Source: Bacillota bacterium
GTDB taxonomy: Bacteria; Bacillota; Dethiobacteria; DTU022; UBA8154
DNA length: 45,295 bases
Assembly (NCBI GenBank): GCA_029778075.1
Contig: JAKORA010000069.1
Location: 1-45,295, forward strand
Direction of reading: 5' to 3'
In this document: one piece after another, positions 5,010 to 42,020 of the stretch
How the letters are laid out: every line of letters starts with the position of its first letter
Position numbering within the stretch: position 1 is the stretch's first letter
Position numbers and translations under genes: made by a program
Notes under the pieces: generated by a model
Database searches by the model: none
What the model was told of the DNA's origin: nothing
Seen by the model: the letters and a program-made list of their open reading frames with translations, nothing else

Positions 5010-5011
5010 GC

Positions 5012-17058: not shown

Positions 17059-17070
17059 CTTTTGATACCT

Positions 17071-17875: not shown

Positions 17876-17889
17876 AGCCTCGTCCTCCT

Positions 17890-19356: not shown

Positions 19357-19382
19357 TTAATAAAAATCCCTCCTTCCTTTCC

Positions 19383-21248: not shown

Positions 21249-21254
21249 ATTAGA

Positions 21255-24207: not shown

Positions 24208-24210
24208 CTG

Positions 24211-25287: not shown

Positions 25288-25290
25288 TTT

Positions 25291-25509
25291 TCACCCGTTA
25301 CCCAGCGTTTCCCCAATTAACTTTTCCAGCTCTTCACCGGCATCCTGATCCAGTATTTGTATTACAAACCCGGCATGCACAAGGGCATAATCGCCCACCT
25401 TTGCCGTTTTCATAAGCCTCAGGCTGGCGCGCTTGGAGACGCCGCCGTAATCTATCGCTGCATATCCGTCCTCTATACTGACAATTCTTCCCGGTATGGC
25501 GAGGCACAT
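25291..25509 (-). CDS. hypC: HypC chaperone
   Basis: Start set at the internal ATG at 25509, giving the obligatory MCLAIPG N-terminus (SD GGAGGTGacaact-ATG). The ORF-track start 25542 is rejected. Confidence 0.9.
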   Translation of the reverse strand: MCLAIPGRIVSIEDGYAAIDYGGVSKRASLRLMKTAKVGDYALVHAGFVIQILDQDAGEELEKLIGETLGNG

Positions 25510-25566
25510 AGTTGTCACCTCCATATACCCCTCTAGCGACAATTAACTGAAGGAATTTCGTTATTT

Positions 25567-27816
25567 TCACCTTTTCATCAACCATGATGCTGCCGCGGCT
25601 TGGCCGTAAGCTATCCCTCCGTCATTCGCGGGTACTTGTTCATTAGCATAAACAGCAAATCCGCTCTTTTGCAACCTGGCAATCCCATGGTGAAGAAGGT
25701 ATGCATTCTGGAAGACGCCCCCCGACAGCGCAACCTTACTGCTTCCATATTGTTTTTTGGCCAAAACAGCGACATCTACCAGCAACTGCACCACAGCCCG
25801 GTGAAACTTGGCGGCTATTCTGCCGCTGCTGCAGCCCTTCCTGATATCACGCACAATATCGCGGATCAGCTGGCGCCAGTCGAAGATCATCATGTTTTCT
25901 TCCCATGTAATATCAAAGCCGTAGCTTCCCTCTGCCGAATCATCTATAGCCTGTTCGAGATCAATTGCCGCCTGTCCTTCATATGTTGTATGAGTCCTTA
26001 TCCCCGCAAGAGCCGCAACAGCGTCGAACAGCCGCCCTGCTCCCGATGTCAGCGGCGAATTGATGCCGCGCTCGCTAGCAAGCAGCAACAGGCTCGCCTT
26101 ATCGCCATACCTGGCAAAAAAGTCCAGGGCCTCATCTTCCCCGCAAGAAATGCGCATCATCGCCAGCGCCATACGCCACGGTTCGCGGATTGCGGCTTCT
26201 CCGCCTAAAAGCGGGGCATATAGCATATGCCCTATCCGTTCAGTTTCAGCGATATCTCCCCAAAGCGCTTCGCCTCCCCACAGGGTACCGTCCTCCCCAT
26301 ACCCTGTGCCGTCAAAGATCAGCCCAATGGCCTTTTCATTAAGATCATGTTCGGCAAGAACAGAGGCAAAATGCGCATGATGATGCTGTATCTCATATAT
26401 GGGGAGCTTGTTTTTAAAACGCTCGGCATATCTTGTAGAAACATAATCAGGATGCATATCCCGGGCTATAACCTCCGGCTTTGCATCAAAGAGCCGCATA
26501 TACGACTCTATTTCCCCTTCATAAAATTTTTCAGTGTCGAAGTCATCGAGGTCGCCTATATGCCCGCTTAAGAAGGCATTTTCCCCTTTTGCCAGACAAA
26601 AGGTATTTTTTTGCTGCGCGCCCAGCGCCAATATGATCCAACTGTTGCCTTTCAGGTTTACAGGCTCCGGGGCATAACCCCGTGCGCGCCTGATTAGCCG
26701 GACTTTGCCTGATACCACCATGCAAACGCTGTCATCCATCCGGCGGAAAATTTTCCTGTTGTGCGTCAACACTGCGTCCGCCATAGCAAAGAGGCAGTTC
26801 ATGGCTTCATTATCGTCATAAATCATGGGACGGTCAGATATATTGGCGCTGGTCATTACCAATACATCATTGTTTTCCATTATTAGGCAGTGCAGAGGCG
26901 TATATGGGAGCATGACCCCCAAGCTGTTGTTAAGAGGTGCGATATCTTCCGCAATCTTGCAACTCTCTTTTTTCCTGAGGAGCACGATGGGCTTTCTTGC
27001 ACACTTAAGTGTTGCCTCCTCTTCGGCATCTACATAACAAAAACGTTTGACCGTATCAATATCACGCATCATTACGGCAAAGGGCTTGTCATAGCGCACC
27101 TTGTTTTTCCTTAACCTGGTGACAGCTCCTTCATTTTGGCCGTCACAGGCAAGATGATACCCTCCCAGCCCTTTAACAGCAATAATCCCGCTTTCCCTGA
27201 TACATTCATCGAACAGCGCCAAGGGGTCTCCATGCTGCCTTTCGCCCCTTTTGTAAAAGAAAAGCTTGGGCCCGCATACAGGGCAGGCATTGGGCTGGGC
27301 ATGGAAACGCCTGTCAAAGGGATCCTCAAACTCACGCCGGCAATCAGGGCACTGGATAAACTCGGACATAGTTGTATTTTTACGGTCGTACGGTATATCG
27401 CAGATGATGGTAAAGCGCGGCCCGCAATCCGTGCAGTTGGTGAAAGCATAGCGGTAGCGCCTGTTACTTTTGTCCGCAATTTCTGCCGCACAGGCAGCAC
27501 AGATGCCAATATCCGGCGATATCAAGGTGTTCCTCTCGCCATAACTGCTCGCTATAATAGAAAAATCCCTGTCACCCCGCAGGGGCTGCTTTTCCACATG
27601 AATAGTCTTTATCTGCGCCAGCGCCGGCGGATGACACTGCAACTCGTTAATAAACTCGTCACAGGCAGCATCTTCACCTTCTATTTCGGCATATACCCCT
27701 TCGGAAGTATTTCGTACATAGCCGCGAAGGGAAAGTGATTTGGCGAGCTTAAACACATAGGGCCGGAAGCCTACTCCCTGCACAACACCTTTTATTTTCA
27801 GCGAATAGCGAATCAT
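25567..27816 (-). CDS. hypF: HypF carbamoyltransferase
   Basis: 749 aa. Acylphosphatase-like N-terminus (KGVVQGVGFRPYV), two CxxC...CxxC zinc-finger pairs, then YrdC-like and Kae1-like regions. Confidence 0.95.
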   Translation of the reverse strand: MIRYSLKIKGVVQGVGFRPYVFKLAKSLSLRGYVRNTSEGVYAEIEGEDAACDEFINELQCHPPALAQIKTIHVEKQPLRGDRDFSIIASSYGERNTLISPDIGICAACAAEIADKSNRRYRYAFTNCTDCGPRFTIICDIPYDRKNTTMSEFIQCPDCRREFEDPFDRRFHAQPNACPVCGPKLFFYKRGERQHGDPLALFDECIRESGIIAVKGLGGYHLACDGQNEGAVTRLRKNKVRYDKPFAVMMRDIDTVKRFCYVDAEEEATLKCARKPIVLLRKKESCKIAEDIAPLNNSLGVMLPYTPLHCLIMENNDVLVMTSANISDRPMIYDDNEAMNCLFAMADAVLTHNRKIFRRMDDSVCMVVSGKVRLIRRARGYAPEPVNLKGNSWIILALGAQQKNTFCLAKGENAFLSGHIGDLDDFDTEKFYEGEIESYMRLFDAKPEVIARDMHPDYVSTRYAERFKNKLPIYEIQHHHAHFASVLAEHDLNEKAIGLIFDGTGYGEDGTLWGGEALWGDIAETERIGHMLYAPLLGGEAAIREPWRMALAMMRISCGEDEALDFFARYGDKASLLLLASERGINSPLTSGAGRLFDAVAALAGIRTHTTYEGQAAIDLEQAIDDSAEGSYGFDITWEENMMIFDWRQLIRDIVRDIRKGCSSGRIAAKFHRAVVQLLVDVAVLAKKQYGSSKVALSGGVFQNAYLLHHGIARLQKSGFAVYANEQVPANDGGIAYGQAAAASWLMKR

Positions 27817-28478
27817 TTTCTTTGTTTTTCCCTGACCTGCTCCAGTATATATTCAACCAGTTGCTCCGCCTCATACAACCCGTTTTTTAGTGCCGTTTCA
27901 AAAACAACCACCTTGGGGTTTATCTCTGCAATATACCTCTTCATCACATTGACATCCACATCAACATAAGGCAGCAAATCTGCTTTTGTGATTACAGCCG
28001 TATGCGCATTCAAAAAAGCCGTTGGATATTTTACCGGCTTGTCTTCTCCCTCTGTAACGCTTAAAATTACCATGCGCATATCTTCACCCAGATCGTAGGT
28101 TGCCGGGCAAATCAGATTTCCCACATTTTCTATTATTAAAAGGTCCAGCGAATCAAGCTCCAGCTTTTGGAGCTGATTTTCAATCATTTTGGCATCCAGA
28201 TGGCATCCGCCGTTTGTATTTATTTGCAAGGCTGTAACACCGGTTTTTTCTATGCGCAGCGCATCATTTTGCGTGGCAAGATCGCCTTCTATGACGGCTG
28301 TCCGCAGGTGCGCGCCAAGCCTGGGCAAGATGTTCTCCAAAAGAGTCGTCTTGCCTGAACCGGGTGATCCCATCATGTTGATCACATATAAGCCCGATGA
28401 TTTGAATTTATTTCTGTTCTCCGCTGCTATTTGTTTATTCAAAGCGTTTAAGTCCTGATTTATCTCCAATCTTGTCAT
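27813..28478 (-). CDS. hypB: HypB Ni-metallochaperone GTPase
   Basis: 221 aa. P-loop GSPGSGKTT, ENVGNLICP, NKADL-like TKADL. No His-rich stretch. Confidence 0.9.
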   Translation of the reverse strand: MTRLEINQDLNALNKQIAAENRNKFKSSGLYVINMMGSPGSGKTTLLENILPRLGAHLRTAVIEGDLATQNDALRIEKTGVTALQINTNGGCHLDAKMIENQLQKLELDSLDLLIIENVGNLICPATYDLGEDMRMVILSVTEGEDKPVKYPTAFLNAHTAVITKADLLPYVDVDVNVMKRYIAEINPKVVVFETALKNGLYEAEQLVEYILEQVREKQRK

Positions 28479-28849
28479 CCTTTACTTTCCCTCGCAATCC
28501 CATTTTTTTCCTCAACATCTATACTTTCTATATATACCTCTTCTCCACCTACGATCACGAAACTCGTGCTTTTACACGCGGGACAAACAATGGGAAATTC
28601 AGCTACCTGATATTCATGGCTACAGGAATCACAACGAGCCACAGCAGGCAAATATTTTATCTCGAGTTCCGCTCCCTTCATGATTCCCTCCTGCGTTAAC
28701 GCTTCAAAAGCAAAAGAAAGGGCATCCGGCAATATGTTAGCAAACTTTCCTACAGATATGACTACATGTTTTACCTGCGCCACGTTATGACTTACGGCAA
28801 CCTGCATTACGGTTGCCAGCAAATTTTGCATCAATGCCGTCTCGTGCAT
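28475..28849 (-). CDS. hypA: HypA Ni-insertion zinc protein
   Basis: Start set at the internal ATG at 28849, giving the canonical MHE N-terminus (AAGGAGGcaaat-ATG). Zinc site CDSC...CPAC. The ORF-track start 28930 is rejected. Confidence 0.9.
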   Translation of the reverse strand: MHETALMQNLLATVMQVAVSHNVAQVKHVVISVGKFANILPDALSFAFEALTQEGIMKGAELEIKYLPAVARCDSCSHEYQVAEFPIVCPACKSTSFVIVGGEEVYIESIDVEEKNGIARESKG

Positions 28850-29121
28850 ATTTGCCTCCTTCAATCCAAAATAGCCAATCAGCGCTATTTCAGTCCATGG
28901 CCCAGGTAAACTTGTCCAAAAATTTAACACTTCTTTTATTCATGGTTAAGTGACTTTTCCCTGTATAAAACCTAACAAAATAATTATCAGGTGTCAAGTT
29001 TGTAAATCATAGTGTTTATCTTCTGATAATGCCAATCATTTCAATAAAGCTTTAAACAAGTATAAGGATGATAATTCAAACATTTTTAGGACTTCTTGTG
29101 CAGGCTTCTTATAATCAAGAT

Positions 29122-30006
29122 TTATAATACGCCTCCGGTGAAGCAAAAAAGGAGATAAAAAAGCAGGAAAAGAAGGGGAACTGTAACAATTGCTATTTTG
29201 TCCTTTCTGGACAGGGTCTGGGAATACATGTAGGTCCTTGCAGGATAAAGGCCGAAAGCCCGGCTTTCCATCGAAATGGTCAAAAAATCCACCTTGCTTA
29301 AGGCCGAGATCACCAGCGGTACCAACAGATACCTCACCGCTCTTAGCAGCTTCCTTGGAGCAAGCCCCTCCAGCTCAATCCCCTTGGCCATCTGGGCATT
29401 CTTTACCTGTTCCAGTTCCAGGTGAAAAACGGGAATAAAGCGCAACGCCGTAATAAGCATGAAGCCAAACCTGTACGGCAGTCCGGCCTGCATTAGAGCA
29501 TAGGCAAGCCTGTTGGGATCCGTCGTGGCCACAAAAAGATAGCTGGAGCCGATAATATTCACAAAGCGCAGCATCATGCTTAAACCTCCCCAAAGCCCTT
29601 TCGACCAAACCTGCAGGCACAATGGCCCCAGATAAAGCTGCTGGAGCAAAATACCTTCTTTTACTGACAAAAGCTGGACCAAAAAAATTAAAAGGCCAAA
29701 GAGAAGAATAAAGCGTAGCTTGCGGGAAAAAAAAGCCGGGCCCAGTCCGGCCAGACCGTAAAAAGCCAGTAGCAGGCAGAAAAGGATCGCTCCCCCCGTA
29801 AAAGAGGGCACGGCAAAAACAGTGAAGCTAAAGCTAAAAAGCACCACCAGTTTTACCAGGGGATGGATACGGTGCAAAGGAGAGTTGTTTTCAACATAGG
29901 TCAGCCCTGGAAAGAACCCTTTTATGACAGATGATGTCCTGTTAGAGACGATATGACGGCAGAAGCCATCAAATTTACCTTCTTTCTCCCGGTGCAGGAA
30001 GCTCAT
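29122..30006 (-). CDS. ecfT: ECF transporter transmembrane (T) component, EcfT/CbiQ family
   Basis: Polytopic, with the CbiQ-like layout and the conserved ARG-containing helices (ALRFIP.., RAFG). The first ATG compatible with the upstream ATPase stop is 30006. The ORF-track 30144 start lies deep inside the ATPase gene. Confidence 0.8.
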   Translation of the reverse strand: MSFLHREKEGKFDGFCRHIVSNRTSSVIKGFFPGLTYVENNSPLHRIHPLVKLVVLFSFSFTVFAVPSFTGGAILFCLLLAFYGLAGLGPAFFSRKLRFILLFGLLIFLVQLLSVKEGILLQQLYLGPLCLQVWSKGLWGGLSMMLRFVNIIGSSYLFVATTDPNRLAYALMQAGLPYRFGFMLITALRFIPVFHLELEQVKNAQMAKGIELEGLAPRKLLRAVRYLLVPLVISALSKVDFLTISMESRAFGLYPARTYMYSQTLSRKDKIAIVTVPLLFLLFYLLFCFTGGVL

Positions 30007-31540
30007 ACCCGGCAGGCAGATACTCTTCCCTCCCCAGCTGTGCCAGCTTCGCCAGCGCCTCATCCACAGGCGCATCAATGATAAGCTTTCCCTCAGCCAG
30101 GAAAAGAATCCTCTGGCAGCAGGAGACAACCACCTCCGGCTCATGGCAGGTCATCAAGGTTATCCCCCCCCGCGCGCGGTGCTCTCTCAAGGCTGCCATC
30201 AGCAGGCCAAGCCGGCCGCTGTCCTGACCTACGAGGGGCTCATCCAGGATTAAGACACTGGGAGAATAGGCCAGGACCGAAACCAGGGTTAACCTCTTTT
30301 TTTCACCCAGGCTCAGGGTAAAGGGATTTTTCTCTTTATATTGCCGCAGCTCGAACTTTTCCAGTAACCGGTCAACCTTACCTTCAATTTCCCGCGGATC
30401 TTCATCGCTCAAAAAATGCGAGGCCAGCGCTGCCTCCCTGAAAACGGTATGCTCAAAGATCTGGTGATTGGGATTTTGAAAGGTAAGACCCATCTCCTGC
30501 GCACGGCGTGTAACTTTTTTTCCGGTTATATCTTCGCTATGCAAATAAATTTTCCCTTCACCCGGCTTAAGAAGTCCCAGCAGCGCCAGTAAAAGGGTGG
30601 TTTTACCGCTGCCGTTATCCCCCATCACGGCAAGTATCTCTCCCGGGTAGGCAGAAAAACTTACCCCGCTGAGAACTTTCTTTCCTTCGTAACCTGCGCT
30701 CAGGTTATTTACGGAGAGGAGAGGTGTCCTTTCTTTCTTCTCCTCCAAGGGGTCCGGGGTTTTGTTTTGCGGCGGCAAAGCTCCCTCCCGGCCATCCTCT
30801 CTACCGGCAGCCAATATAGCGGCTGAAACATATTTCTTCTGCGCTTCCCCGGCAGTGCCCTCCCCAACAATTCTGCCGCTGTCCATGAACAGCAGTCGAT
30901 CTGAAATGGAAGCAAGCCGCTCCAGGCGGTGCTCAATCACAATAATAGAGATTTCCTGCTCCTCCCTCAGCTTTTCCAGGGTTCGGAGCACCTCCATGGT
31001 ACAAAAAGGATCCAGGTTCGCCGTGGGTTCATCCAGGATGAGAAGGGCAGGGGTCATCGCCAGCACCGAGGCAATAGCCACCCGCTGTTTTTCGCCCCCG
31101 GAAAGGGTATGGAGCTTCCTTTCCCTTAAATTCTGAGCTCCCACGGCTTGCAGGGCAAAGCTGACCCGCTCGCGTATTTCCTCCGGAGCTATACGCAGGT
31201 TTTCCGGGCCGAAAGCCACCTCATCGTTTACCGTAAGGGTACAAAGCTGGGCTTCCGGATCCTGCTGCACCAGGCCCACAATCCCGGAAAGCCCTCCCGC
31301 AGGGTAATCCCTGGTATCCCGGCCCAGTATGCGGACAACCCCTTCCATTTTTCCAGGGTAAGCGTGGGGGATAAAGCCGGCCAAACAGAGGGCCAGGGTG
31401 GATTTACCGCAGCCACTGGGGCCTGTTATCGTCAGGAACTGGCCCGGGTCTACCCGCAGGTTGATCCTCTCCAGCGCCGGAGAGGTTGAACCGCTGTATG
31501 TAAAAGAAAGATCCTGGATATCAACGACCGGTTCGCTCAT
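29975..31540 (-). CDS. ecfA: Fused tandem ECF ATPase (EcfA1-EcfA2/CbiO-like)
   Basis: 521 aa with two ABC cassettes: Walker A GPSGCGKST and GDNGSGKTT, signatures LSGGEKQR and LSLGEKKR, Walker B LILDEP twice. Confidence 0.9.
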   Translation of the reverse strand: MSEPVVDIQDLSFTYSGSTSPALERINLRVDPGQFLTITGPSGCGKSTLALCLAGFIPHAYPGKMEGVVRILGRDTRDYPAGGLSGIVGLVQQDPEAQLCTLTVNDEVAFGPENLRIAPEEIRERVSFALQAVGAQNLRERKLHTLSGGEKQRVAIASVLAMTPALLILDEPTANLDPFCTMEVLRTLEKLREEQEISIIVIEHRLERLASISDRLLFMDSGRIVGEGTAGEAQKKYVSAAILAAGREDGREGALPPQNKTPDPLEEKKERTPLLSVNNLSAGYEGKKVLSGVSFSAYPGEILAVMGDNGSGKTTLLLALLGLLKPGEGKIYLHSEDITGKKVTRRAQEMGLTFQNPNHQIFEHTVFREAALASHFLSDEDPREIEGKVDRLLEKFELRQYKEKNPFTLSLGEKKRLTLVSVLAYSPSVLILDEPLVGQDSGRLGLLMAALREHRARGGITLMTCHEPEVVVSCCQRILFLAEGKLIIDAPVDEALAKLAQLGREEYLPAGYELPAPGERR

Positions 31541-31572: not shown

Positions 31573-32655
31573 TTATTCTACAAGAATCCTGTTTACCATC
31601 TTTACCCAGTACCCTCCTTCGTAATTGGCGGCAATCAGGCGTAGCGTATCCTCCTCCCGGATGAGCAGCATCCGGTCGTCATTTAACACTTCCTGCAGTG
31701 CAAATTCCACTGTGTAGCCGTCCGTAGCCGCAACGGTAAGCTTTTTAGCCCCCTCCAGGGGAGAAGCCTCCTGTAAAATTACCTTCAAAGGGATACCGGT
31801 ATACTCCCGCGGGGGAACCCGGGTGTACTCTCCCTTTAGTTCGGCTGTTATTGTTGTCTCATACCGGCCGAAGTCGGAAAGCTGGAAAGAGAGGGGTTTT
31901 TCCACCGCCCCCTCCACCCGGCAGCGGGGGCCTACCCAGGGAGGCTCAAAAACAGCGGCAAAGTAGTAAACAGCTCCGATGGCCAGCAGTAGCGTCAGTA
32001 TAGCTGTTACAGCCAGCCTGAATCGGCTGCGGGCTTTATTCATGACCCCGCCCGTCGTCGCCTCGGTGGCGGTCTCTTCCCCTGAAAGGCCCGAAATTCG
32101 AAAAGGCCTGGCCTGCAGCACGATCTCCAGCACACTGTGTCCAAAGCTGCCCGCCAGCAGAACACCGGAAACAAAGGCGATAGCGCTGATAAAGAGAAGG
32201 TAGCTGACAGGGGCGCCGGCAAAATAGAGGAGCTGGAAAACAAAAACGTTGGAAGCAGCTGAAACACCTCCGGCCAGCATGTAGCTTCCCAAACTATGAC
32301 GCCTGCTGACCAGCAGGACAACATCAACCAGCACACCCTGAACCAGGGAAACCAGGATGATGGCCACCCCATGGCTACTGCCGGTGAGCAGTTCGATTAC
32401 TCCTTTGAGCAGGCCGACGGCGGTAGCGGCGCCTGGCCTGCGGATCAACCCCGCCGCCAGGATGAACCAGAATATATGCAGCCCGGAAACAAACTGCCCG
32501 GCACCGAAAGGAACGACAAAAATGCGGTTTAAAAGATTGCCCAGGTAGCCGACATAGGTACTCATCACCCCGCCGATTCCGCTCAAAACGGCAACGATAA
32601 GGAGATCCCTATTGCTCAGGTAATATTCTTTACGTTTTTTTAGCTCCTCTTTCAC
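31573..32655 (-). CDS. ECF S-component-like membrane protein fused to an extra TM helix and a C-terminal Oxidored_molyb-like extracytoplasmic domain
   Basis: 360 aa, GTG start (GGGGGttataca-GTG). aa 1-183 form six hydrophobic helices with a generic ECF S-component look. aa 211-236 form a further TM helix (RFRLAVTAILTLLLAIGAVYYFAAVF). aa 237-360 are soluble: VEGAVEKPLSFQLSDF...YTGIPLKVIL...ATDGYTVEF...YWVKMVNRILV. Confidence 0.65.
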   Translation of the reverse strand: MKEELKKRKEYYLSNRDLLIVAVLSGIGGVMSTYVGYLGNLLNRIFVVPFGAGQFVSGLHIFWFILAAGLIRRPGAATAVGLLKGVIELLTGSSHGVAIILVSLVQGVLVDVVLLVSRRHSLGSYMLAGGVSAASNVFVFQLLYFAGAPVSYLLFISAIAFVSGVLLAGSFGHSVLEIVLQARPFRISGLSGEETATEATTGGVMNKARSRFRLAVTAILTLLLAIGAVYYFAAVFEPPWVGPRCRVEGAVEKPLSFQLSDFGRYETTITAELKGEYTRVPPREYTGIPLKVILQEASPLEGAKKLTVAATDGYTVEFALQEVLNDDRMLLIREEDTLRLIAANYEGGYWVKMVNRILVE

Positions 32656-32802: not shown

Positions 32803-33369
32803 TCAATCAATGCGGATAATCATTACATTGCGCACCCAGTAAGGCCTGTTTGCCTCACCCGGCTCTCGCTGGCCGACGACCAACTGGAAGGGATTGCCTT
32901 TTTCCGGGTTATACTCCCTGCCGTTTTCCTCCCAGGCCAGGATCATCTTGTACTTTGTTTGGGGATTTTGCTCGTCAATATAATCTTCCCGCTTGATATC
33001 CTCAAGAGGAAACTCCACCTCATAGCCGTCCTCAGCGATAAAAGTTACCCTGGAGGCATGATCCTGCAAGCTCACTTTTTCATTTAAAAGATGCCATACC
33101 CAGACTCCTTTAAAATGAACATATTCCTTCGACCCATATGAGTTAAGGGCGAAATAAGTGGCTTCCACCAGGCCGTCTTCCATGGACTTCAGCTCATCCA
33201 GCGTGAAGGAAGCCCTGCTTTGTACGGCGTCCCCCTTAATCACAACTGTGCCCCGGGGAACTTTTTCGGACTGAGCACATCCACACCCTGCGGCGCAGGT
33301 GATCAGAAGCAGCAAAAAAGTAATAGTTGCTGCCTTATTTTTATAAACACACTGGCACAACCACTGCAT
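32803..33369 (-). CDS. Small lipoprotein consisting of one Oxidored_molyb-like module
   Basis: 188 aa. Signal peptide with a lipobox-like LLITCAAGC, then VVIKGDAVQ..FTLDELK...FKGVWVWHLL...AEDGYEVEF...FQLVVG...YWVRNVMIIRI. SD tAGGAGGcactttgc-ATG. Confidence 0.6.
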   Translation of the reverse strand: MQWLCQCVYKNKAATITFLLLLITCAAGCGCAQSEKVPRGTVVIKGDAVQSRASFTLDELKSMEDGLVEATYFALNSYGSKEYVHFKGVWVWHLLNEKVSLQDHASRVTFIAEDGYEVEFPLEDIKREDYIDEQNPQTKYKMILAWEENGREYNPEKGNPFQLVVGQREPGEANRPYWVRNVMIIRID

Positions 33370-33645: not shown

Positions 33646-36600
33646 TCATTCTCGCTTGGCCAGCACATTCACAATAACCGCAGCGGCTTCAGCTCTGGTA
33701 GCTTTACCCTGCGGCCGCAGTGTGTTGTCAGGATATCCGCTAATGACCCCATTTTTCACCGCGGCGGCCACAGCTTCCCTGGCCCAGGCAGAGATACTGC
33801 CGCTGTCCAAGAAAGAGAGCTCTTCCGCTACCGGTGTCAATTCGGCGGCCTTCACGACCATTACAGCCAGCTCCTCGCGTGTGATCGCCTCATCCGGTCC
33901 AAATGTATCATCGTTATAACCGCTGATGATACCATATGATGCTGCTGTAGAAACAAACCCCTGTGCCCAGTGACCTGAAGTATCTGCAAAGGTTTTGTCA
34001 CTTTTGGGTGCCAATTGGAAGGCTTTTACAAGAACGGTGGCAAATTCCGCACGGGTGATATTATTGTCCGGTTTGAAGGTGCCGTCCGGATAACCGCTGA
34101 TAGCCTCGAGTGCGACCAGTTTCCTAATGCTGCTTTCAGCCCAGTGGCCCACAATGTCTTTTAACATTTCTGCATCCGAAACCAGCTCAATACGCACAAT
34201 CTGCCCAATGGATGTTTGCCCGCTGACAGCCGGCCCGACAAGCCGCAGCGGCCAACTGCTGTCGGACTCCGGTATGGGTGCCCCGTTTAATCTATTGGCG
34301 ACAATGTAGTTGCTGTTGCGGATAATATCCGCGCTGTCGAGCGTTACCTTATGACCGTCAGCTGCCGTGAGCACCACCTGGTACCCGGCAAGGGCCAGAT
34401 CATCATTGAAGGCGTTCTCGGAGTGCTGGTCGGCATCATCGACAAATCCGGCGAGGAACCACAGCGGCATCCCTTCCCAGACCCGTCCTTGAGAATCGGT
34501 GTAAGTTGCCTTGTGTTCGGCGCCGAACTGACAGGCGAGCGCCTGCTCGAAATAGGTCCTGCTCACATCATACTCCAGGCCGCCAAGAGCCTTTCCGTCT
34601 AGCTTCAGTGTCCAATCGCCCTGGGGTATGGAGTATACCCTGATTTCCGTAATCCACTTGGCTGATAAGCCGGCACAGGATGGATACATGACACCGTCCA
34701 TATAATTATAGTGCCAGTATTTTTCCGGCAGCGTCTCGTGCATATCCCACTGTCCGTAGACGTTGTCACCCCCTGGAGCAAAAAACAGGCGCATACCATC
34801 CTGATACTCGGGTACATACTTTCCATCAGCCCACCAGGCCAGGATGGCCTCTCCCTGGCGTGCCAGCACCGAAGGATCGGGATAGATGGAGGAGTAGGGA
34901 AGCCTGGTCTCGAAACCGTCTTTGGCCACAAACACTATCTCTGTACCGGCACCCATGTGACCTACAAGCCCGCAAAGATCCCTGACGCGGGTGCCCTTTA
35001 CGGCATTGGCGATCTTGAAGCCGCCAGGATAGGTCTCGTCAGGATCCCAGAGATCATCGGGTTTCATCGTGAGCCCCTCGAATTTGTATACCGTTGTCCC
35101 GTCGCCAATCACCTCGAGTTCACTCTCCATCCAGCGATAATCAACTGTTACCTCCTTAAGGATGGTAGTTCCGTCTTCGGCGTACTTGACGATACGGATT
35201 GAGGGTAAGGGCTGAACAGTGCCAAAAGATGCCAGTTCAATTTCCACGATATTACCCACGCTGGTACCACCAAGGGCGCCGTCTTTGGCAACACCGTTTC
35301 CGACCAGCCTGAGGGGGGCTGAGTTGCCGGTAAGCGGCGCACCGTTGCATTTATTGGCGACAATGTAATCGTTGCTCCAGGCCACATCAGCGCTGGCGAA
35401 ATCTTTGGTGTAGCCGTCGCCGGCTTTTACCAGGATGGTGTAACCGGCCGTGGCCTGATTGGCATTAAAGGCGTGGGGTTGCCGGTCATCAACCCAGCCT
35501 GCCAGCAGCCAGAGGGGTATACCCGACCAGACGTTGCCGTCTTTATCAGTCCATTCTTTAAGATGGCCTGAATGCGGGCAGGCGAGTGCCTCCTCGAACT
35601 CAGCCTGCGAGATGACATCGCTGATCTTGCCGGTAAGTTTAAGATTCCAGCTGCCGGGAGCAGGCTCGGGGGTCTGCAGCTCGGGTATTTCTATCCGTAC
35701 AATGTTGCCGACAGCAGAGCCTCCAAGGGAACCGCCCTCTTTGGCCACACCGTCGCCGACCAGGCGCAGGGGCCACAATGAACCGGCAAGGGGTTCACCG
35801 TTACACTGATTGGCGATAATGTAAGCGTCACTGCGGGCCACCTCCGTGCTCGCAAAGGTCTTGCTATAACCGTCCCCGGCCATCACTTTCACGGTATAAC
35901 CCGCGGCGGCAACGCTGTCATTAAAGGTCCAGTGGGCGCCTTTCTCGATGTCGTCCACCGCACCGAGAAGCACCCAGAGGGGCACGCCGGACCAGACGTT
36001 GCCATCCTTGTCGGTCCATTCCCTGTAGTGGCCTGAACCCGCACAGGCCAGCCCTTCTTCAAACTCCTGCTGGCTGATGGTATCCCCTACATCACCGACC
36101 AGCTCCAGGGTCCATCCCTCATCCGGTTCGGGGAGTTTGGAAAGCTCAATGCGCACAATGTTGCCTACCTGCTGCCCGCCAAATACAGCCGGACCTTTGA
36201 GATGGAGCGGCCAGCACGGTTTTCCTGCCGGAGTTTGGAGCGGAAGCGGCTCCCCGTTAAGGGTATTGGCTACGATATATCCGTTGTTGCGGGCGATGTC
36301 CGCGCTATCCAGAGTTGTCTTCCAGCCGTCACCGGATATCAAATCCACTACGTAATGCTGGGCGGCCAGCTCATCGTTGAAGTTGAAATGGTCAGGACCT
36401 TCGTCGGGGTCATCATCAACCATAGCTACCAGCAGCCAAAGCGGCATGCCCCCCCACACATTTCCTTCCTCATCTGTCCAGGAGACGCGGTGGGTAGGAC
36501 GGCAGGATAGGGCCTCCTCGAAGTAGGCTTTGGTTACGGAAGTATTTTTTGCACCGGAGAGTTGAAGGGTCCAGTCCGTAGGTACAGTTCCTCCCCTTGA

Positions 36601-37173
36601 GGCGTCCGTAGGGATAGTTCCTCCCGTTGAGATAACAGTTTTTACTGCAGCGGTAGCCGCTGCCTTGACGGCCGTTAAATCTGAGGGGTCATCGATACCG
36701 GCGGCGTAGTAAAACTCAACCCTGTCACCGTTAACAAGTTCAATCAAGTTCAGGGCGCCGGCGGGGTTGTTGTAACCGTCTTTATAGACATCATTGACAT
36801 AAGCGTACCAGTAACCCGGATTTTTGCGTGTATAACTCCCCACGTTGTCGAGGAGAAGAGCGCCTGATGAGGCGTAGTTCTTGTCGGTGACATCATAGGT
36901 GAAGCCGCCGGCAACAGCGGCTGCTTGAAGCGCCCCCAGCGGTGTGGTTTCGCTCACAGTGTATTCTACCCCAGAGTTGTAAGCGTTTACGTTAAAAGTT
37001 TCGTCAGCTGACAAAGCAACTTCCCCATCGTAAAGAATGTCCATTGTCAATTTCCCGGCCGCCGCGGTACTAACTGGCTGCGGTACGACTGCTGTCAAGA
37101 CGAGTGCTGCGGCCAGCACCGCTAGCGACATAACCCGTAAAACTTTCTGCCTATACCTTGTCAGTTCAATCAT
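33646..37173 (-). CDS. SLH-anchored modular cell-surface protein: signal peptide, DUF4430/transcobalamin-like domain, 4 Oxidored_molyb-like modules plus 1 divergent module, 3 SLH domains
   Basis: 1175 aa. DUF4430-like aa 41-157 (GYWYAYVND...LVNGDRVEFYY). Modules at aa 201-344, 354-496, 509-647 and 854-997 each start W(T/N)LxL.G and end GNIVRIEL-like. Divergent module at aa 659-848. Three SLH repeats at aa 1003-1172 (e.g. ISGYPDGTFKPDNNITRAEFA). SD tAGGAGGtagacaagc-ATG. Confidence 0.85.
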   Translation of the reverse strand: MIELTRYRQKVLRVMSLAVLAAALVLTAVVPQPVSTAAAGKLTMDILYDGEVALSADETFNVNAYNSGVEYTVSETTPLGALQAAAVAGGFTYDVTDKNYASSGALLLDNVGSYTRKNPGYWYAYVNDVYKDGYNNPAGALNLIELVNGDRVEFYYAAGIDDPSDLTAVKAAATAAVKTVISTGGTIPTDASRGGTVPTDWTLQLSGAKNTSVTKAYFEEALSCRPTHRVSWTDEEGNVWGGMPLWLLVAMVDDDPDEGPDHFNFNDELAAQHYVVDLISGDGWKTTLDSADIARNNGYIVANTLNGEPLPLQTPAGKPCWPLHLKGPAVFGGQQVGNIVRIELSKLPEPDEGWTLELVGDVGDTISQQEFEEGLACAGSGHYREWTDKDGNVWSGVPLWVLLGAVDDIEKGAHWTFNDSVAAAGYTVKVMAGDGYSKTFASTEVARSDAYIIANQCNGEPLAGSLWPLRLVGDGVAKEGGSLGGSAVGNIVRIEIPELQTPEPAPGSWNLKLTGKISDVISQAEFEEALACPHSGHLKEWTDKDGNVWSGIPLWLLAGWVDDRQPHAFNANQATAGYTILVKAGDGYTKDFASADVAWSNDYIVANKCNGAPLTGNSAPLRLVGNGVAKDGALGGTSVGNIVEIELASFGTVQPLPSIRIVKYAEDGTTILKEVTVDYRWMESELEVIGDGTTVYKFEGLTMKPDDLWDPDETYPGGFKIANAVKGTRVRDLCGLVGHMGAGTEIVFVAKDGFETRLPYSSIYPDPSVLARQGEAILAWWADGKYVPEYQDGMRLFFAPGGDNVYGQWDMHETLPEKYWHYNYMDGVMYPSCAGLSAKWITEIRVYSIPQGDWTLKLDGKALGGLEYDVSRTYFEQALACQFGAEHKATYTDSQGRVWEGMPLWFLAGFVDDADQHSENAFNDDLALAGYQVVLTAADGHKVTLDSADIIRNSNYIVANRLNGAPIPESDSSWPLRLVGPAVSGQTSIGQIVRIELVSDAEMLKDIVGHWAESSIRKLVALEAISGYPDGTFKPDNNITRAEFATVLVKAFQLAPKSDKTFADTSGHWAQGFVSTAASYGIISGYNDDTFGPDEAITREELAVMVVKAAELTPVAEELSFLDSGSISAWAREAVAAAVKNGVISGYPDNTLRPQGKATRAEAAAVIVNVLAKRE
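34183..36573 (-). repeat. Intragenic tandem module repeats of the S-layer protein gene
   Basis: Module coordinates from my residue count: 36142-36573, 35686-36114, 35233-35649, divergent 34630-35199, 34183-34614. Confidence 0.8.
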
Positions 37174-37437: not shown

Positions 37438-38901
37438 TTATCTGGCAATCGTGATCTTTTCAGTCTCGCCTTCGTAGACTACATCCGCGCCTATGGTCTC
37501 GCTGACAAAGCGCAAGGGAACGAAGGTGCGGCCGGGTGGAAGCGTCGTTGGGGGACAATCAATAGTCTGCTCCGCTCCATTAACCCGAACAGTGCTGGAA
37601 CCCAGGGTCAGGATAATCTCTTTCTCCCCGTCGGTAATAGTAACCCGTCCTGTTTCTGGATCCCAACCAACTTGGGCGCCCAGGGCCTCGCTGACAAAAC
37701 GCACCGGCACCAGCGTGCGGTTGACCTCGGCATTAAGATAAGGCGCCGCATCCAGGGTGTAAGGCGCACCGTTGACGGTGGCTTCCATACTTCCAATGGT
37801 GAGCACAATGACTTTTGGCTCTGATTTCTCAGCTTCCGTATCTTTCCCGGGCTCTGCCCCTGTTTCCGGCTCTTCCACAGCGGGAGGTACTGCCGGAGAA
37901 CCGTCACCGGGCTCCTGGCCCTCAATAAAGTATTCAAAGGTAACAACGTCGCTGTCCAGCTTGCCGGGGCCGATTGTTACCGCTTTAATCGTGGTGTTCT
38001 TGGTAAGAGGTCCAATGGGATGATTGATTTGCCCCAAAACATCCGCCCGGGACGACCACCACCTGCTGGCAATCCAGTTGTACATAGGGCTGTTCATGGT
38101 CGGGGTGCTGCCGTCGGTGGTGTAATAAATCTTGTCGTCATCCATGTGCAGGTTACTCAACGTTACCATGGTGCCGGCAGGCACCGTGCCGCCCGGCGGG
38201 TTGGCTTGCGGGGCGTCCCATTTCTGCGGCTTGTCAGTGAGCACCTCGATCTTGTTCAGGTATTTAACGAACAGGTTTCCCGTCTGCTCGGTTACCGTCC
38301 GCTGCCCCAACATCAGCAGCAGGGTATTCAGTTCATTCATATATTCGGGATTATCACTGCCCTCCACGCTGATCAGGCCAATAATCGTCTCCACCGGCAC
38401 TGCGCCCGAAGGGTCACCTGGGATATGCCCATCACCGTCGCCGCCGCCAACTTTGAAATTAGGAAAACGATAGCGCTTGTCCTGGAACAGCTCCTTCATC
38501 GTAAGCGTTACTGTGTAGCCGTCAACTGCCGTAAACTTAAGCATCGTAGCTTCTTCTTCCTTAATTCCAGCTTTAAGGAGCAGATCCCACAATTTAACCC
38601 CCTTCCCCACATACCACTTCTTGGTGGGCCAGGTATTAATACAGCTGTATAGATACTGGTGCTGCTCCATTTTCTCCAACTCTTCCCGGGTAAAGGTCAC
38701 CGGGTTCGCCACCCCTTTTCCCGTGATCTCCAGAGAATGCGAGGTGGCAAGGGCAACCCCGGGAGCCACCAAGTTAAGCGCAACGGCAAGTAGCCATAAA
38801 ACTATAACAGCCGCCGTCAACCTGCAGAAGTTAAACTTAATTCGGCACCTTTTCAATAGAGGAAACGATAGCCTTCTCCAAGCTCTTTTACCGGTTATCA
38901 T
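37438..38901 (-). CDS. Exported protein: Oxidored_molyb-like module, chitobiase/Fn3-associated-type beta domain, Pro/Glu linker, copper-amine-oxidase-N-like stalk domain
   Basis: Start set at the ATG at 38901 (GGGGAGGtatttttc-ATG, MITGKRAWRR...) rather than 38976. Contains LEITGKGVANPVTFTREELEKM...WYVGKGVKLWDLL...AVDGYTVTL, then KIYYTTDGSTPT, and two C-terminal repeats ...RTLVPVRFVSEALGAQV / ...RTFVPLRFVSETIGADV. Confidence 0.7.
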   Translation of the reverse strand: MITGKRAWRRLSFPLLKRCRIKFNFCRLTAAVIVLWLLAVALNLVAPGVALATSHSLEITGKGVANPVTFTREELEKMEQHQYLYSCINTWPTKKWYVGKGVKLWDLLLKAGIKEEEATMLKFTAVDGYTVTLTMKELFQDKRYRFPNFKVGGGDGDGHIPGDPSGAVPVETIIGLISVEGSDNPEYMNELNTLLLMLGQRTVTEQTGNLFVKYLNKIEVLTDKPQKWDAPQANPPGGTVPAGTMVTLSNLHMDDDKIYYTTDGSTPTMNSPMYNWIASRWWSSRADVLGQINHPIGPLTKNTTIKAVTIGPGKLDSDVVTFEYFIEGQEPGDGSPAVPPAVEEPETGAEPGKDTEAEKSEPKVIVLTIGSMEATVNGAPYTLDAAPYLNAEVNRTLVPVRFVSEALGAQVGWDPETGRVTITDGEKEIILTLGSSTVRVNGAEQTIDCPPTTLPPGRTFVPLRFVSETIGADVVYEGETEKITIAR

Positions 38902-38989
38902 GAAAAATACCTCCCCTTTTCTAATTTTTGGCATTAACAAAACCACAGTGAATAACGCCAACGGTAAACGGCGCAACCGTCAGCTAAAA

Positions 38990-41753: not shown

Positions 41754-42020
41754 GCATATTTTGGTCAAAATTTTTCTATTATGTAGTAAATTCTTACACT
41801 ACACTATTTTATTCCTTGATAAACACAATTTATCTTCACTATGCACATATATTCATAATAGGAGCAAAGTCTTCCTTAAAATCTATTATATAACAACTAC
41901 AACTACATTTAAAGATGTAAATAAAGAGTAACAACGCCCCTCCTTTTGAAACTATACATTATTACAATTATACGCTTTTCCGATACCTTTTCTGCATAAA
42001 ATTCTTGTATAATTCCTCTT

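Follow-up and report, generated by a model that had tools for sequence, protein, structure and literature searches.

A conserved ECF S component with a predicted extracytoplasmic domain of trimmed SUOX fold in anaerobic Bacillota and Archaea

The defining property of ECF transporters is the capture of the substrate within the membrane, without extracytoplasmic binding proteins, and they are importers in nearly all studied cases. Some members of the class, namely the metal transporters CbiMNQO and NikMNQO(K/L), carry extra membrane or extracytoplasmic components. Outside this class, the type I ABC importers OpuA and GlnPQ have substrate-binding domains fused to the permease, and in the Isd heme relay of Staphylococcus aureus, NEAT domains are found in surface, wall-spanning and membrane-proximal proteins, the chain ending at an ABC importer. 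The closest solved relative of the S component described here is YkoE of the Bacillus subtilis YkoEDC system, a group-I ECF thiamine transporter (PDB 5EDL). YkoE is a protein of 197 aa controlled by a TPP riboswitch (Sun 2013 supplement file 5). For the additional domain considered below, the closest small non-enzymatic structural match is PruR of the PruA-PruR-DcpA pathway (PDB 7KOS, 7RKB), a Cys-less periplasmic pterin binder of SUOX fold whose truncated pocket is thought to be too small for full Moco. It is a free signalling protein of about 170 aa found in Proteobacteria, paired with DcpA or with sensor kinases. No prior account of a system of the kind reported here was found in the literature searched (ECF transporters, the Moco riboswitch, and Moco or tungstate uptake), and the riboswitch surveys compared give modABC and tupABC as the only MOCO-regulated transporters.

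The window, i.e., the whole stretch of DNA that was analysed, covers 45,295 nucleotides of a Bacillota bacterium (contig JAKORA010000069.1), and its relevant features are collected in Table 1. The ORF at 31573-32655 was assigned to a dedicated ECF-type ABC transporter of group I, as its S subunit, which captures the substrate. The gene starts with GTG, with a GGGGG ribosome-binding site 7 nt upstream, and the reading frame is unbroken across the junction between core and domain. The gene of the fused EcfA-EcfA' ATPase begins 32 nt past the stop codon and is overlapped by the listed ORF of the T component, the true start of the latter being probably the internal ATG near 30006. This transporter is not a type I/II ABC importer, since its membrane subunits are ECF S and T components and its outside modules are SUOX-like and not of SBP fold.

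Table 1. Coordinates and assignment basis of the transporter gene, its parts and the neighbouring genes in the window.
Feature	Position	Strand	Basis
EcfT/CbiQ-type T component	29122..30144	(-)	PF02361 CbiQ E 2.9e-30, from ORF aa 87
Fused EcfA-EcfA' ATPase, 521 aa	29975..31540	(-)	Two ABC_tran; TIGR04520/TIGR04521, 337 and 336 bits, above cut-off
S-component fusion gene, 360 aa + stop	31573..32655	(-)	ORF; PF09819 and PF00174; full-length conservation
Trimmed SUOX-fold domain (predicted extracytoplasmic) without Mo-ligand Cys loop, aa 237-360	31576..31947	(-)	PF00174, profile, Foldseek
Seventh helix (TM7), aa 204-236	31948..32046	(-)	AF2 helix 203-235; hydropathy; A228 and Y231 invariant in homologue alignment
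Basic, variable, disordered linker (predicted cytoplasmic), aa 184-203	32047..32106	(-)	pLDDT, alignment, Lys/Arg
YkoE-like six-helix S-core, aa 1-183	32107..32655	(-)	phmmer and Foldseek to 5EDL; AF2 helices
Lipoprotein, 188 aa, single SUOX-like module	32803..33369	(-)	PF00174 E 4.4e-8; lipobox read from sequence
S-layer (SLH) protein, 1175 aa, at least 4 SUOX-like repeats	33646..37173	(-)	SLH E 5.5e-48; PF00174 E 2.3e-19
Wall protein, 512 aa: SUOX-like module, CHB_HEX_C_1/Fn3_assoc, Cu_amine_oxidN1	37438..38976	(-)	Pfam
DUF2149 protein (HmuV-like)	38990..39328	(-)	PF09919 E 1.7e-8; adjoins ExbB-like gene in related loci
MotA/ExbB-family protein (HmuU-like)	39282..39953	(-)	PF01618 E 1.8e-9; conserved in cluster
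602-aa protein: N-terminal SUOX-like module, Fn3_assoc/CHB_HEX, Big_2, hydrophobic C-terminus	39960..41768	(-)	Pfam; conserved
Secreted purple-acid-phosphatase-like metallophosphoesterase (with Big_2, FIVAR), 633 aa	42112..44013	(-)	Pur_ac_phosph_N E 1.4e-20; Metallophos E 1.8e-15

The N-terminal part of the protein matched PF09819 (ECF S component, YkoE type) at aa 16-133 with an E-value of 2.9e-21 (76.3 bits for a cut-off of 25.2), and the S-core was aligned by phmmer with YkoE (5EDL) over query aa 16-178 (E 3e-12). Its predicted model was matched to 5edl by Foldseek (E 6e-8, TM 0.76), the match to RibU being weak. In the AF2 model of the whole protein (pLDDT 82.4), six core helices were obtained (15-46, 52-71, 76-90, 97-117, 122-144 and 150-182), followed by disorder at residues 184-203, the seventh helix and a beta domain at 244-359. 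The pLDDT of the linker was below 50 and its columns were gapped and variable in the homologue alignment, with Lys or Arg at residues 183, 186 and 207-213, and the hydropathy peak of the seventh helix lay at 218-236 (score 2.29). Clusters of Lys and Arg were found at the N-terminus, at 72-73, at 118-119 and at 183-213, and the predicted outside loops were almost free of them. Because these basic residues lie on the N-terminal side of the seventh helix, the C-terminal domain should face the outside of the cell according to the positive-inside rule. This layout is in line with the original prediction of a six-helix S-core followed by a polar linker, one extra membrane helix and a soluble domain placed outside the cell, and the boundaries proposed for this domain (nt 31576-31947, aa 237-360) were correct.

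The fusion shares with YkoE the same Pfam family, the same six-helix core, an open cavity without a lid loop, and dedicated A and T genes within the operon. Indeed, Glu77 and Gln95, by which YkoE binds the aminopyrimidine, are kept as the invariant residues E88 and Q106, which may be family-wide features of PF09819 and not substrate-specific ones. Other thiamine contacts are changed: the stacking Trp49 is replaced by the invariant His60, Tyr46 by Ser57 and Asp131 by Val139. YkoE has neither the seventh helix nor the outside domain, whereas the 360-aa fusion has both.

The outside domain was matched by PF00174 (Oxidored_molyb) at aa 246-359 of the fusion (E 2.4e-7; 30.9 bits for a cut-off of 24), and at an E-value of 3.5e-9 (36.9 bits, same cut-off) when taken in isolation. 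A profile of the domain matched SoxC (E 7e-8) and SorA (E 2e-5), to which it was aligned as two blocks with about 9 residues between them. In SoxC and SorA, the segment between these blocks is 27-38 residues long and bears the Mo-ligand Cys, whereas the short segment of the domain holds no Cys. Foldseek searches with the predicted model returned SorA, SoxC, YedY, nitrate reductase, sulfite oxidase and PruR (TM ~0.6). On these profile and model matches, the domain is a cut-down SUOX molybdopterin-binding fold from which the Mo-ligand Cys loop is missing, with about 120 aa compared with the 169 positions of the Pfam Moco-domain model, and it ends at the C-terminus of the protein. Its fold is homologous to that of the SUOX-family molybdoenzymes (SorA, SoxC, YedY/MsrP, sulfite oxidase), of which the motifs W/Y-x-G-x-P-L and LRL..G..WVK are kept. 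The Cys-bearing loop, much of the cofactor pocket and the dimerisation domain are missing, and the domain is not an enzyme candidate. Across 59 sequences (identity down to 56%), 17 of its residues are invariant and many others nearly so, the conserved polar and aromatic positions including D312-G-Y314, R339, Y345 and W350.

Like PruR, the domain appears as a small, extracytoplasmic and non-catalytic SUOX fold without the Mo-ligand Cys. The Foldseek matches to PruR (7kos, 7rkb and 7kom) had E-values of ~4e-4 to 8e-4 and TM values of 0.58-0.60, and the domain profile gave no sequence-level match to PruR. D312-G-Y314 and W350 are candidate equivalents of Tyr104/Trp160 and Asn/Asp102 of PruR by spacing alone. 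The two differ in that the domain is tethered to the membrane as part of a transporter subunit, with homologues repeated across many envelope proteins, and genes for PruR partners (DcpA or a DTB sensor) are absent from the window and the related loci examined. The domain is even smaller than PruR and, by analogy, its ligand may be limited to a small pterin, or it may have none.

The same module had been expected in the neighbouring lipoprotein and surface proteins, and its recurrence there was confirmed at several levels. All module-bearing neighbours (lipoprotein, SLH and wall proteins) were matched by Pfam Oxidored_molyb, the S-fused domain was matched by BLASTP to the 188-aa lipoprotein (E 6e-7) and to the repeats of the SLH protein (E 1e-4), and hhalign aligned these repeats to the S-fused domain over 113 columns with 86% probability (E 5e-6). 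The SLH repeats have the SUOX-like motifs NGEPL...PLRLVG and an invariant Cys-x4-His. This Cys was compared with the SUOX Mo-ligand Cys: the PDB matches were weak for both a single repeat and a four-repeat profile, and hhalign pairs it with T268, which is close to, though not demonstrably at, the position of the Mo ligand. At its N-terminal end, the SLH protein gave a match to DUF4430, a domain of corrinoid-binding type, which was below cut-off (E 0.14) and was discarded. The signals of the surface proteins, read from the sequence, are Sec-type and not twin-arginine. In many related loci, too, the lipoprotein gene directly precedes the S gene, and the 512-aa wall protein is kept in L001, L005 and other related loci. 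The MotA/ExbB-family and DUF2149 pair of the cluster is also found in the heme uptake operon HmuYRSTUV of Porphyromonas gingivalis (HmuU/HmuV), which is instead a TonB-dependent outer-membrane system of a diderm that lacks both SUOX modules and an ECF transporter. In the window, HypA, HypB and HypF genes lie directly downstream of the ECF genes. Nickel was rejected as the substrate, as this Hyp neighbourhood was not seen at the other loci examined and the S-core is not of NikM/CbiM type. Similarly, a c-di-GMP riboswitch at 44886-44965 was considered for control of the cluster and not linked to the ECF genes, as the ORFs that it stands before are small and TasA/camelysin-like, with a hairpin and a promoter-like site setting the later genes apart.

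Taken with these neighbours, the locus resembles several known systems in arrangement and differs from each in its parts. As in OpuA and GlnPQ, an extracytoplasmic binding-type domain is tethered to the transporter beside free lipoprotein versions, but those importers combine the type I fold with a canonical SBP whereas here an ECF S component is joined to a SUOX-fold remnant. As in Isd, a single module is repeated through the envelope up to a cofactor ABC importer, though the module, the ligand and the transporter class all differ and transfer between modules is hypothetical in the present system. CbiMNQO and NikMNQO(K/L) are also group-I ECF systems with additional outside non-core components; these accessories are small separate Ni/Co proteins, none of them a fused SUOX-type domain.

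Searches with the fusion returned 402 homologues, the best 120 of which are full length with 55-94% identity, and full-length proteins form at least 120 clusters. By sequence comparison, the fusion constitutes a conserved family in anaerobic Bacillota and Archaea, with 156 genomic relatives in these groups, the archaeal ones including Asgard, Thermoplasmata and Methanobacteriota MAGs; Thermovorax subterraneus, Anoxynatronum and Dethiobacter are cultured carriers. The S and AA' genes are found together in nearly all of the 81 related loci, with T next wherever the locus is long enough; many loci, among them L034, L042 and several archaeal ones, have S-AA'-T without surface enzyme candidates. 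Related clusters also keep a phosphoesterase, and seven compact bacterial operons encode a Metallophos phosphodiesterase joined to a module in one protein, as do L032 and the archaeon L069. A split-gene counterpart was sought; both of the unfused S-core relatives that were traced stand alone, without ECF or module genes in the vicinity. The homologues thus bear out a conserved fusion and not two genes, and the N-terminal part was modelled as an S component, as had been proposed.

The regulation of the orthologous operons, which together with the identity of the domain goes beyond the original prediction, was then considered. The Moco riboswitch (Rfam RF01055) was found upstream of the operon in L001, L003 and L005, and a custom covariance model gave 38 matches in about 30 bacterial loci. 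Among the bacterial loci with at least 5 kb of upstream sequence, a same-strand aptamer was found upstream in 24 of 39, and five of these aptamers lie at 103-411 nt from the S start. In L052, for example, an aptamer at 9767-9889 directly precedes the S gene. All of the 18 covariance-model matches re-scored by Rfam reached the gathering score, and P3 was missing in all 10 Rfam alignments of the aptamers; its absence is taken from these alignments, a regex test across all aptamers being unreliable. The P3-less class of this riboswitch has been tied to Tuco (Regulski 2008). Targets of the Moco/Tuco riboswitch class include tupABC and modABC, and also some cofactor-using enzymes. In L045, L050, L052 and L056, the genes for surface modules and phosphatases have aptamers of their own in front of them, and the riboswitch operons are often joined to tupABC or MOT1 oxyanion-transporter genes. 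This is illustrated by L032, in which TupABC and a MOT1 molybdate transporter (E 8e-53) come before the ECF genes, by L019, in which tupABC adjoins the ECF operon, and by L045, in which the S gene is immediately preceded by genes for TupA-like binding proteins. No Moco aptamer was found in the window by Rfam at the gathering score, nor at 32500-45295 by Rfam at E up to 1, nor at 28000-45295 by the custom covariance model with filters off. The aptamer is present in 3 of the 12 close relatives (at least 70% identity) and absent from the other 9; hence, the regulatory link for the window copy rests on orthology. A substitute conserved leader was sought by comparing window positions 37150-37460 with the close relatives L007, L013, L017 and L028, in which the aptamer is also absent, and no conserved block was found (41% mean identity).

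From these data, we favour, at not far short of an even chance, the salvage of a molybdopterin-type cofactor or a pterin by a dedicated ECF importer, the modules passing the ligand inward and the S-fused domain acting as terminal receiver or lid. Candidates for the imported ligand are Tuco, Moco and MPT, as well as a precursor or a breakdown product of a pterin. The ligand would be captured by the non-catalytic modules on the S-layer, the wall proteins and the lipoprotein and then relayed inward, while a secreted or module-fused metallophosphodiesterase would trim a phosphoester or dinucleotide form of it; indeed, the fusions between metallophosphodiesterase and module suggest a phosphoester ligand. 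From its place on the membrane, next to the lidless YkoE-type cavity, the S-tethered module would hand the ligand to the S-core, whose toppling would be driven by EcfAA'T. The long disordered linker could allow the core to topple while the seventh helix and the outside domain stay put. In the relatives, the P3-less (tungsten-cofactor type) Moco riboswitch would stop expression when the cofactor is sufficient. As the L032 operon already contains TupABC and MOT1, the ECF system would not merely be an oxyanion pump. Several observations stand against cofactor or pterin salvage: the window cluster has no Moco/Tuco aptamer, the TupA-like genes of L045 could equally indicate tungstate, and the pocket thought too small for full Moco in PruR belongs to a protein larger than the domain. 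Moco is chemically labile outside proteins. Extended to the lineages, the proposal is tentative, possible rather than likely: anaerobic Bacillota and several archaeal lineages may scavenge a W/Mo pterin cofactor (or its dinucleotide or cyclic-phosphate forms) through a chain of degenerate SUOX-fold modules running from the S-layer to the wall, the lipoprotein and the S-tethered module, aided by the external phosphodiesterase and the ExbB/DUF2149 pair.

The same riboswitch data could be explained by an ECF-type importer of tungstate (or molybdate), whose S component would receive the oxyanion after its binding by the SUOX-like modules and the binuclear-metal phosphoesterase. Tungstate and molybdate are tight-binding inhibitors of purple acid phosphatases, and such binding by the phosphoesterase, the P3-less Moco/Tuco riboswitches upstream of the operon in relatives, the known tupABC and modABC targets of this riboswitch class and the TupA-like genes of L045 would all be accommodated. 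However, a further oxyanion pump would be redundant where such transporters are already present (L032, L019), and the modules derive from a fold that binds pterin cofactors, their closest small structural match, PruR, being a pterin binder. To our knowledge, no ECF S component carries an oxyanion, and none was found in the literature searched. We therefore regard oxyanion import as unlikely.

The missing aptamer in the window and in most of its close relatives, and the heavy trimming of the domain, are what would be expected if the latter were a ligand-free docking or scaffolding module, holding the S component to homologous wall proteins with which it could pair, and if the substrate of the riboswitch-less clade of the window were unrelated to W/Mo cofactors. 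Such a role appears distinctly unlikely: the 17 invariant residues include polar and aromatic ones, so that a conserved site fits better than a mere spacer, and most of the distant relatives carry the same gene set under Tuco-type riboswitches.

Transport in the opposite direction, with Moco/Tuco exported to Sec-exported surface proteins whose SUOX-like repeats are, or once were, cofactor-dependent enzymes and with the S-tethered domain as donor or chaperone, seems improbable. ECF transporters being nearly always importers, it would be an exception; the external phosphodiesterase is more in keeping with acquisition, as is the ExbB/DUF2149 pair, which has a counterpart in a heme-uptake operon, and S-AA'-T occurs without surface enzyme candidates in the loci named above. 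The Sec-type signals do imply that the loading of any cofactor would have to take place outside the cell, SUOX-like motifs and the Cys-x4-His persist in the SLH repeats, although this Cys is not demonstrably at the Mo-ligand position, and some cofactor-using enzymes are also under Moco riboswitches. A parallel exists in the Listeria ECF system supplying FAD for extracytosolic flavinylation, an involvement of an ECF system in extracytosolic cofactor trafficking being on record (PMC9973259).

That the fusion would be an ordinary YkoE orthologue, importing thiamine or HMP and carrying an incidental extra domain, is very improbable. YkoE is indeed its closest solved relative, the aminopyrimidine-binding Glu and Gln are retained, and several homologues are named "thiamin/hydroxymethylpyrimidine transport system permease" by JGI. 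Nevertheless, the three other thiamine contacts are replaced, and Moco/Tuco riboswitches stand at related loci instead of a TPP riboswitch. Neither in the window nor in the Rfam-scanned related loci is the S gene preceded by a TPP riboswitch, the sole TPP match among the latter being on the opposite strand and far from the S gene (L066). Finally, an assembly or frameshift artefact joining two genes has a negligible chance of being the explanation, given the continuous frame and an identical 350-365-aa architecture across hundreds of independent bacterial and archaeal assemblies.

A conserved S subunit with its own outside domain amid homologous modules breaks the definition of ECF transporters, the lipoprotein module also raising the question whether a soluble binding protein takes part. 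It also offers a tractable system in which to study how a toppling S component is fed from outside. Besides, the link with Tuco-type riboswitches points to prokaryotic uptake of a molybdopterin-type cofactor or pterin, beyond that of the metal oxyanion. If cofactor or pterin salvage proves true, this would be, as far as known, the first transporter for Moco/Tuco salvage in prokaryotes, as well as the first case of an extracytoplasmic receptor built into an ECF system, and it would add a new ligand class for ECF transporters. The annotation "molybdopterin-dependent oxidoreductase" on Cys-less surface proteins would then gain a function, and models of W/Mo-cofactor economy would change for syntrophic and subsurface anaerobes and for Asgard archaea.

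The S fusion, in which a YkoE-like S-core is followed by a seventh transmembrane helix (TM7) and a C-terminal domain, is preceded by a GGGGG ribosome-binding site 7 nt 5' of its start, and its frame runs without a break across the proposed junction as a single ORF. As originally predicted, its N-terminal part is an ECF S component: residues 16-133 match PF09819 (E 2.9e-21, above the curated Pfam cut-off), the S-component family that includes YkoE and to which the protein is assigned on its sequence. Residues 246-359 match PF00174, Oxidored_molyb (E 2.4e-7, above the curated cut-off), and the isolated C-domain reached E 3.5e-9 against the same family. An AlphaFold2 model computed with 59 homologues (mean pLDDT 82.4) displayed the anticipated six-helix core (15-46, 52-71, 76-90, 97-117, 122-144, 150-182), disordered residues 184-203, a long seventh helix (203-235, with an extra hydropathy peak at 218-236) and a compact soluble beta domain (244-359). 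Lys and Arg residues are concentrated at the N-terminus and at 72-73, 118-119 and 183-213, and are nearly absent from the loops predicted outside. The N-terminal helix of YkoE lies on the cytosolic side. From the positive-inside rule and this homology, the S-core would end in the cytoplasm, so that TM7 would carry the C-domain across the membrane; in this predicted topology, the C-domain should be extracytoplasmic. We consider this architectural part of our account highly probable.

Genes of the ECF cluster in the window, from the transporter genes to the upstream phosphatase-like gene
Feature	Position (nt)	Strand	Remarks
CbiQ-type EcfT	29122..30144	-	downstream of the ATPase gene
Fused EcfA-EcfA' ATPase (AA')	29975..31540	-	downstream of the S gene; begins 32 nt past its stop codon
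S fusion	31573..32655	-	360 aa, GTG start
One-module lipoprotein		-	first gene upstream of the S gene
SLH protein	33646..37173	-	second upstream; at least 4 modules
Module + CHB_HEX/Fn3_assoc + Cu_amine_oxidN1 protein		-	third upstream
DUF2149 protein		-	fourth upstream
MotA/ExbB-family protein		-	fifth upstream
Module + Big_2 protein		-	sixth upstream
Purple-acid-phosphatase-like metallophosphoesterase	42112..44013	-	seventh upstream

The fusion of the S-core with the C-domain is real, and it is conserved. Among 5.8 billion proteins searched, 402 homologues were recovered. The best 120 are clusters of 297-420 aa with 81-100% query coverage and 55-94% identity, both Pfam domains being present in most of them; their members belong to Syntrophomonadaceae, Desulfotomaculaceae, Desulfitobacteriaceae, Thermovorax and Dethiobacteria. 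Scanning one genome per species yielded 156 relatives, and the 80 loci kept include Asgard MAGs (Hermod-, Prometh-, Odin-, Heimdall- and Thorarchaeota) as well as MAGs of Thermoplasmata and Methanobacteriota, the archaeal relatives matching over their full length at 42-46% identity. An exhaustive search with the S-core only, over 1.84 billion clusters, gave only 248 representative clusters, and about 38 of the best 150 reach at least 320 aa. Within this family, a class of about 455 aa (clusters P0144-P0154) bears a longer Oxidored_molyb-like extracytoplasmic region, the 717-aa cluster P0189 has the core joined directly to EcfA-EcfA' instead, and unfused forms of about 190 aa exist too. The two unfused relatives that could be traced stand alone, neither having module or ECF genes in its vicinity; hence no split-gene counterpart of the fusion was seen.

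The S-core aligns to Bacillus subtilis YkoE (PDB 5EDL) over residues 16-178 (E 3e-12), and the model superimposes on that structure with a TM of 0.76. When the thiamine ligands reported for YkoE were mapped through the sequence alignment, Glu77 and Gln95 were found to be kept as E88 and Q106, both invariant in the S-fusion family, whereas the stacking Trp49 is replaced by an invariant His60, Tyr46 by Ser57 and Asp131 by Val139. By these ligand residues, and also by its riboswitch context, the S fusion is a relative of YkoE and not its orthologue.

Structural matches of the C-domain include the SUOX-fold Moco domains of SorA (E 1.6e-6), SoxC, YedY, nitrate reductase and sulfite oxidase, and a further match is PruR, a small periplasmic pterin-binding protein (7KOS, 7RKB, 7KOM; TM about 0.6). 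Two blocks align when the profile of the C-domain is matched to SoxC (E 7e-8) or SorA (E 2e-5). Between the blocks, the enzymes hold 27-38 residues carrying the Mo-ligand Cys loop, whereas the C-domain has a Cys-free stretch of about 9 residues. Since the Cys loop is missing, the C-domain is a trimmed, non-catalytic SUOX fold that belongs to the SUOX superfamily by descent; its identity as a molybdoenzyme was rejected, as both the loop and the full domain are absent. PruR provides a documented precedent of such a trimmed, non-catalytic domain acting as an extracytoplasmic pterin binder and, by analogy, the putative function of the C-domain is most like that of PruR. However, the PruR system has a DcpA partner and the S-fusion system has none in the window or the related loci examined, which sets the two apart.

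The claim that neighbouring proteins carry the same module was borne out: the C-domain retrieved the 188-aa lipoprotein (BLASTP E 6e-7) and the repeats of the 1175-aa SLH protein (E 1e-4), and a profile-profile comparison of the modules gave 86% probability (E 5e-6, 113 columns). Oxidored_molyb hits from Pfam fall in the lipoprotein, the SLH protein and a 512-aa protein, and also in the N-terminal region of a 602-aa protein once this was scanned alone. Together, S, AA' and T form a dedicated group-I ECF transporter. Distant genomes share the upstream gene set, for example at loci L001 and L005 (Thermovorax), and the MotA/ExbB and DUF2149 pair of this set corresponds to HmuU/HmuV of the Porphyromonas gingivalis heme-uptake operon. 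Divergent Bacillota have a compact operon with a two-module lipoprotein, a Metallophos phosphodiesterase with a C-terminally fused module, the S fusion, AA' and T, an arrangement also found in the archaeon L069. The module-fused phosphoesterase resembles SpdA/CpdA-type cyclic-nucleotide phosphodiesterases, below the family cut-offs.

An invariant Cys and an invariant His ('C-x4-H' or 'C-P-x-T-P-H-P') are preserved in the repeats of the SLH protein (aa 186-345, 346-500, 501-655 and 851-1000) and in the second module of the relatives' two-module lipoproteins (L051 7164-8171 and similar loci); these repeats and second modules also retain the SUOX motif 'NGEPL...PLRLVG'. The Cys and His are absent from the S-fused, lipoprotein and phosphodiesterase-fused modules, and there may be two functional module classes, one metal-contacting and one not. 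The N-terminus of the SLH protein (aa ~40-160; 36550-37173, -) has a sub-threshold likeness to DUF4430 (E 0.14; 'GYWYAYVND...GDRVEFYY'), a domain type known from corrinoid-binding proteins, and might be a further cofactor-binding domain. Besides, the EcfT and ATPase ORFs overlap by 170 nt (29975..30144); the Pfam match of EcfT begins only at aa 87, and its real start is probably an ATG near 30006.

Each of the three loci first examined has, according to Rfam, a Moco/Tuco riboswitch (RF01055) upstream of the operon. A covariance model built from these aptamers gave 38 confident hits, distributed over about 30 of 65 bacterial loci, and none among 16 archaeal loci; 18 of 18 re-scored hits passed the curated Rfam gathering score. 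For 39 bacterial loci the upstream sequence extends to 5 kb or more, and in 24 of them a same-strand aptamer stands upstream of the S gene, at 103-411 nt from the S start in five loci and 2-3.2 kb upstream, ahead of the lipoprotein and phosphodiesterase genes, in about fifteen. Several loci (L045, L050, L052, L056) have a second one ahead of surface-module and phosphatase genes. The P3 stem is missing in all ten printed Rfam alignments, and this P3-less class is tied to tungsten-cofactor metabolism (Regulski et al., 2008). The riboswitch operons also hold TupABC-type tungstate transporter genes (L032, L045, L019) and, in L032, a MOT1-family molybdate transporter (E 8e-53). Neither the covariance model nor Rfam detected a Moco/Tuco aptamer in the window, whose leader (37174-37437), like those of L007, L013, L017 and L028, is unrelated to the aptamer and has no conserved element; the riboswitch is lost or replaced in this clade. 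In three relatives, a Tuco-type aptamer lies exactly in the gap that separates the 512-aa-type gene from the surface gene next to it (L001 5095-5216, L014 5576-5692, L016 1515-1632). In the two Anoxynatronum species (L035 and L036), a second Moco/Tuco aptamer (15236-15347, +) follows the ECF operon and precedes predicted genes for a polytopic membrane protein of 178 aa, a 139-aa protein and a 946-aa enzyme that reads as aldehyde-oxidase/xanthine-dehydrogenase-type.

Since the riboswitches that repress the operon sense the cofactor, the substrate would be linked to the supply of W/Mo cofactor. It is probably other than a bare oxyanion, since oxyanion transporters are already encoded in the same operons, the modules descend from a pterin-cofactor-binding fold, and a phosphodiesterase is fused to the module, which would imply a phosphoester ligand; candidates are MPT phosphate, the MGD or MCD dinucleotides and cyclic cPMP. 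An inward relay could run over the modules of the S-layer, the wall, the lipoprotein and the S subunit, comparable to that of NEAT domains for heme. The tethered module starts only about 8 residues past TM7, and the YkoE-type cavity is open, without a lid loop, which would make this module well placed as the final receiver or lid for the S-core. The linker, disordered, variable and roughly 20-25 residues long, would allow the core to topple while TM7 stays fixed. Taken whole, this chain is inferred and falls slightly short of an even chance.

Uptake of tungstate or molybdate itself, which fits the riboswitch class and the adjacent tupA genes, is unlikely, as it would be redundant with Tup/MOT1 and the origin of the module fold speaks against it. 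Somewhat less probable still, the C-domain would be a ligand-free docking domain and the substrate in the window's clade unrelated to W/Mo; the window indeed lacks the aptamer, as do 9 of 12 close relatives, but strongly conserved polar and aromatic residues suggest a functional site. We give little credence to export, in which the system would load cofactor onto Sec-exported surface SUOX-like proteins: a Listeria system for FAD offers a precedent, and SUOX motifs and Cys-x4-His are kept in the SLH repeats, but such surface proteins are absent at many loci and the accessory genes resemble acquisition genes. A plain thiamine transporter and, least probable of all, an assembly artefact are effectively excluded.

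Elsewhere in the window, the region directly 3' of the ECF operon (23209..28930, 14465..22664, -) encodes HypA, HypB, HypF, HypD and HypE-like proteins together with a membrane-bound [NiFe] hydrogenase of the Ech/Hyf type that has Mrp-like subunits, a neighborhood not conserved in the other loci examined. A 17-bp perfect hairpin (42026-42065, +/-) directly 3' of the phosphatase-like gene is followed by a promoter-like site (41913..41885), which suggests that this gene is transcribed separately from the remaining cluster. The C-terminal FIVAR region of the phosphatase-like protein recurs almost unchanged in an 81-aa ORF about 3 kb away (45016..45261, -), which points to a recent domain duplication or a second surface protein leaving the window. 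A c-di-GMP-I riboswitch (GGC variant; 44886-44965, -; 75 bits, E 4e-16) appears to control a matrix-type gene and not the ECF cluster; the small protein encoded 3' of it has a signal of the SipW/TasA-camelysin type ('GGGTMAWFTAE'), and the two overlapping ORFs of the matrix-type gene (44609..44854 and 44244..44657, -) suggest a frameshift or split gene. A PYLIS element (Rfam; 6240-6337, -) lies inside an MttB-family methyltransferase ORF (5887..7293) that has no in-frame stop there. With two more MttB-family proteins, a corrinoid protein and a pterin-binding (MtrH-like) protein encoded nearby (1320..2792, 2789..3472, 3465..5024, 5012..5836), it resembles a methyltransferase island for methylamine or betaine.

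Type I ABC importers are known to include forms with tethered binding domains; for ECF transporters, no description of such domains, of the S-fusion architecture or of a Moco/Tuco-regulated system was found in the open-access literature. The original Moco riboswitch paper mentions no ECF system regulated in this way (Regulski et al., 2008), and a regulon survey gives modABC and tupABC as the only MOCO-regulated transporters. The S fusion is already labeled 'ECF transporter S component' in databases, with both Pfam hits recorded; thus, the novelty lies in the interpretation and not in the sequence. There is a substantial chance that this system represents a new capability, the prokaryotic salvage of a molybdopterin-type cofactor.
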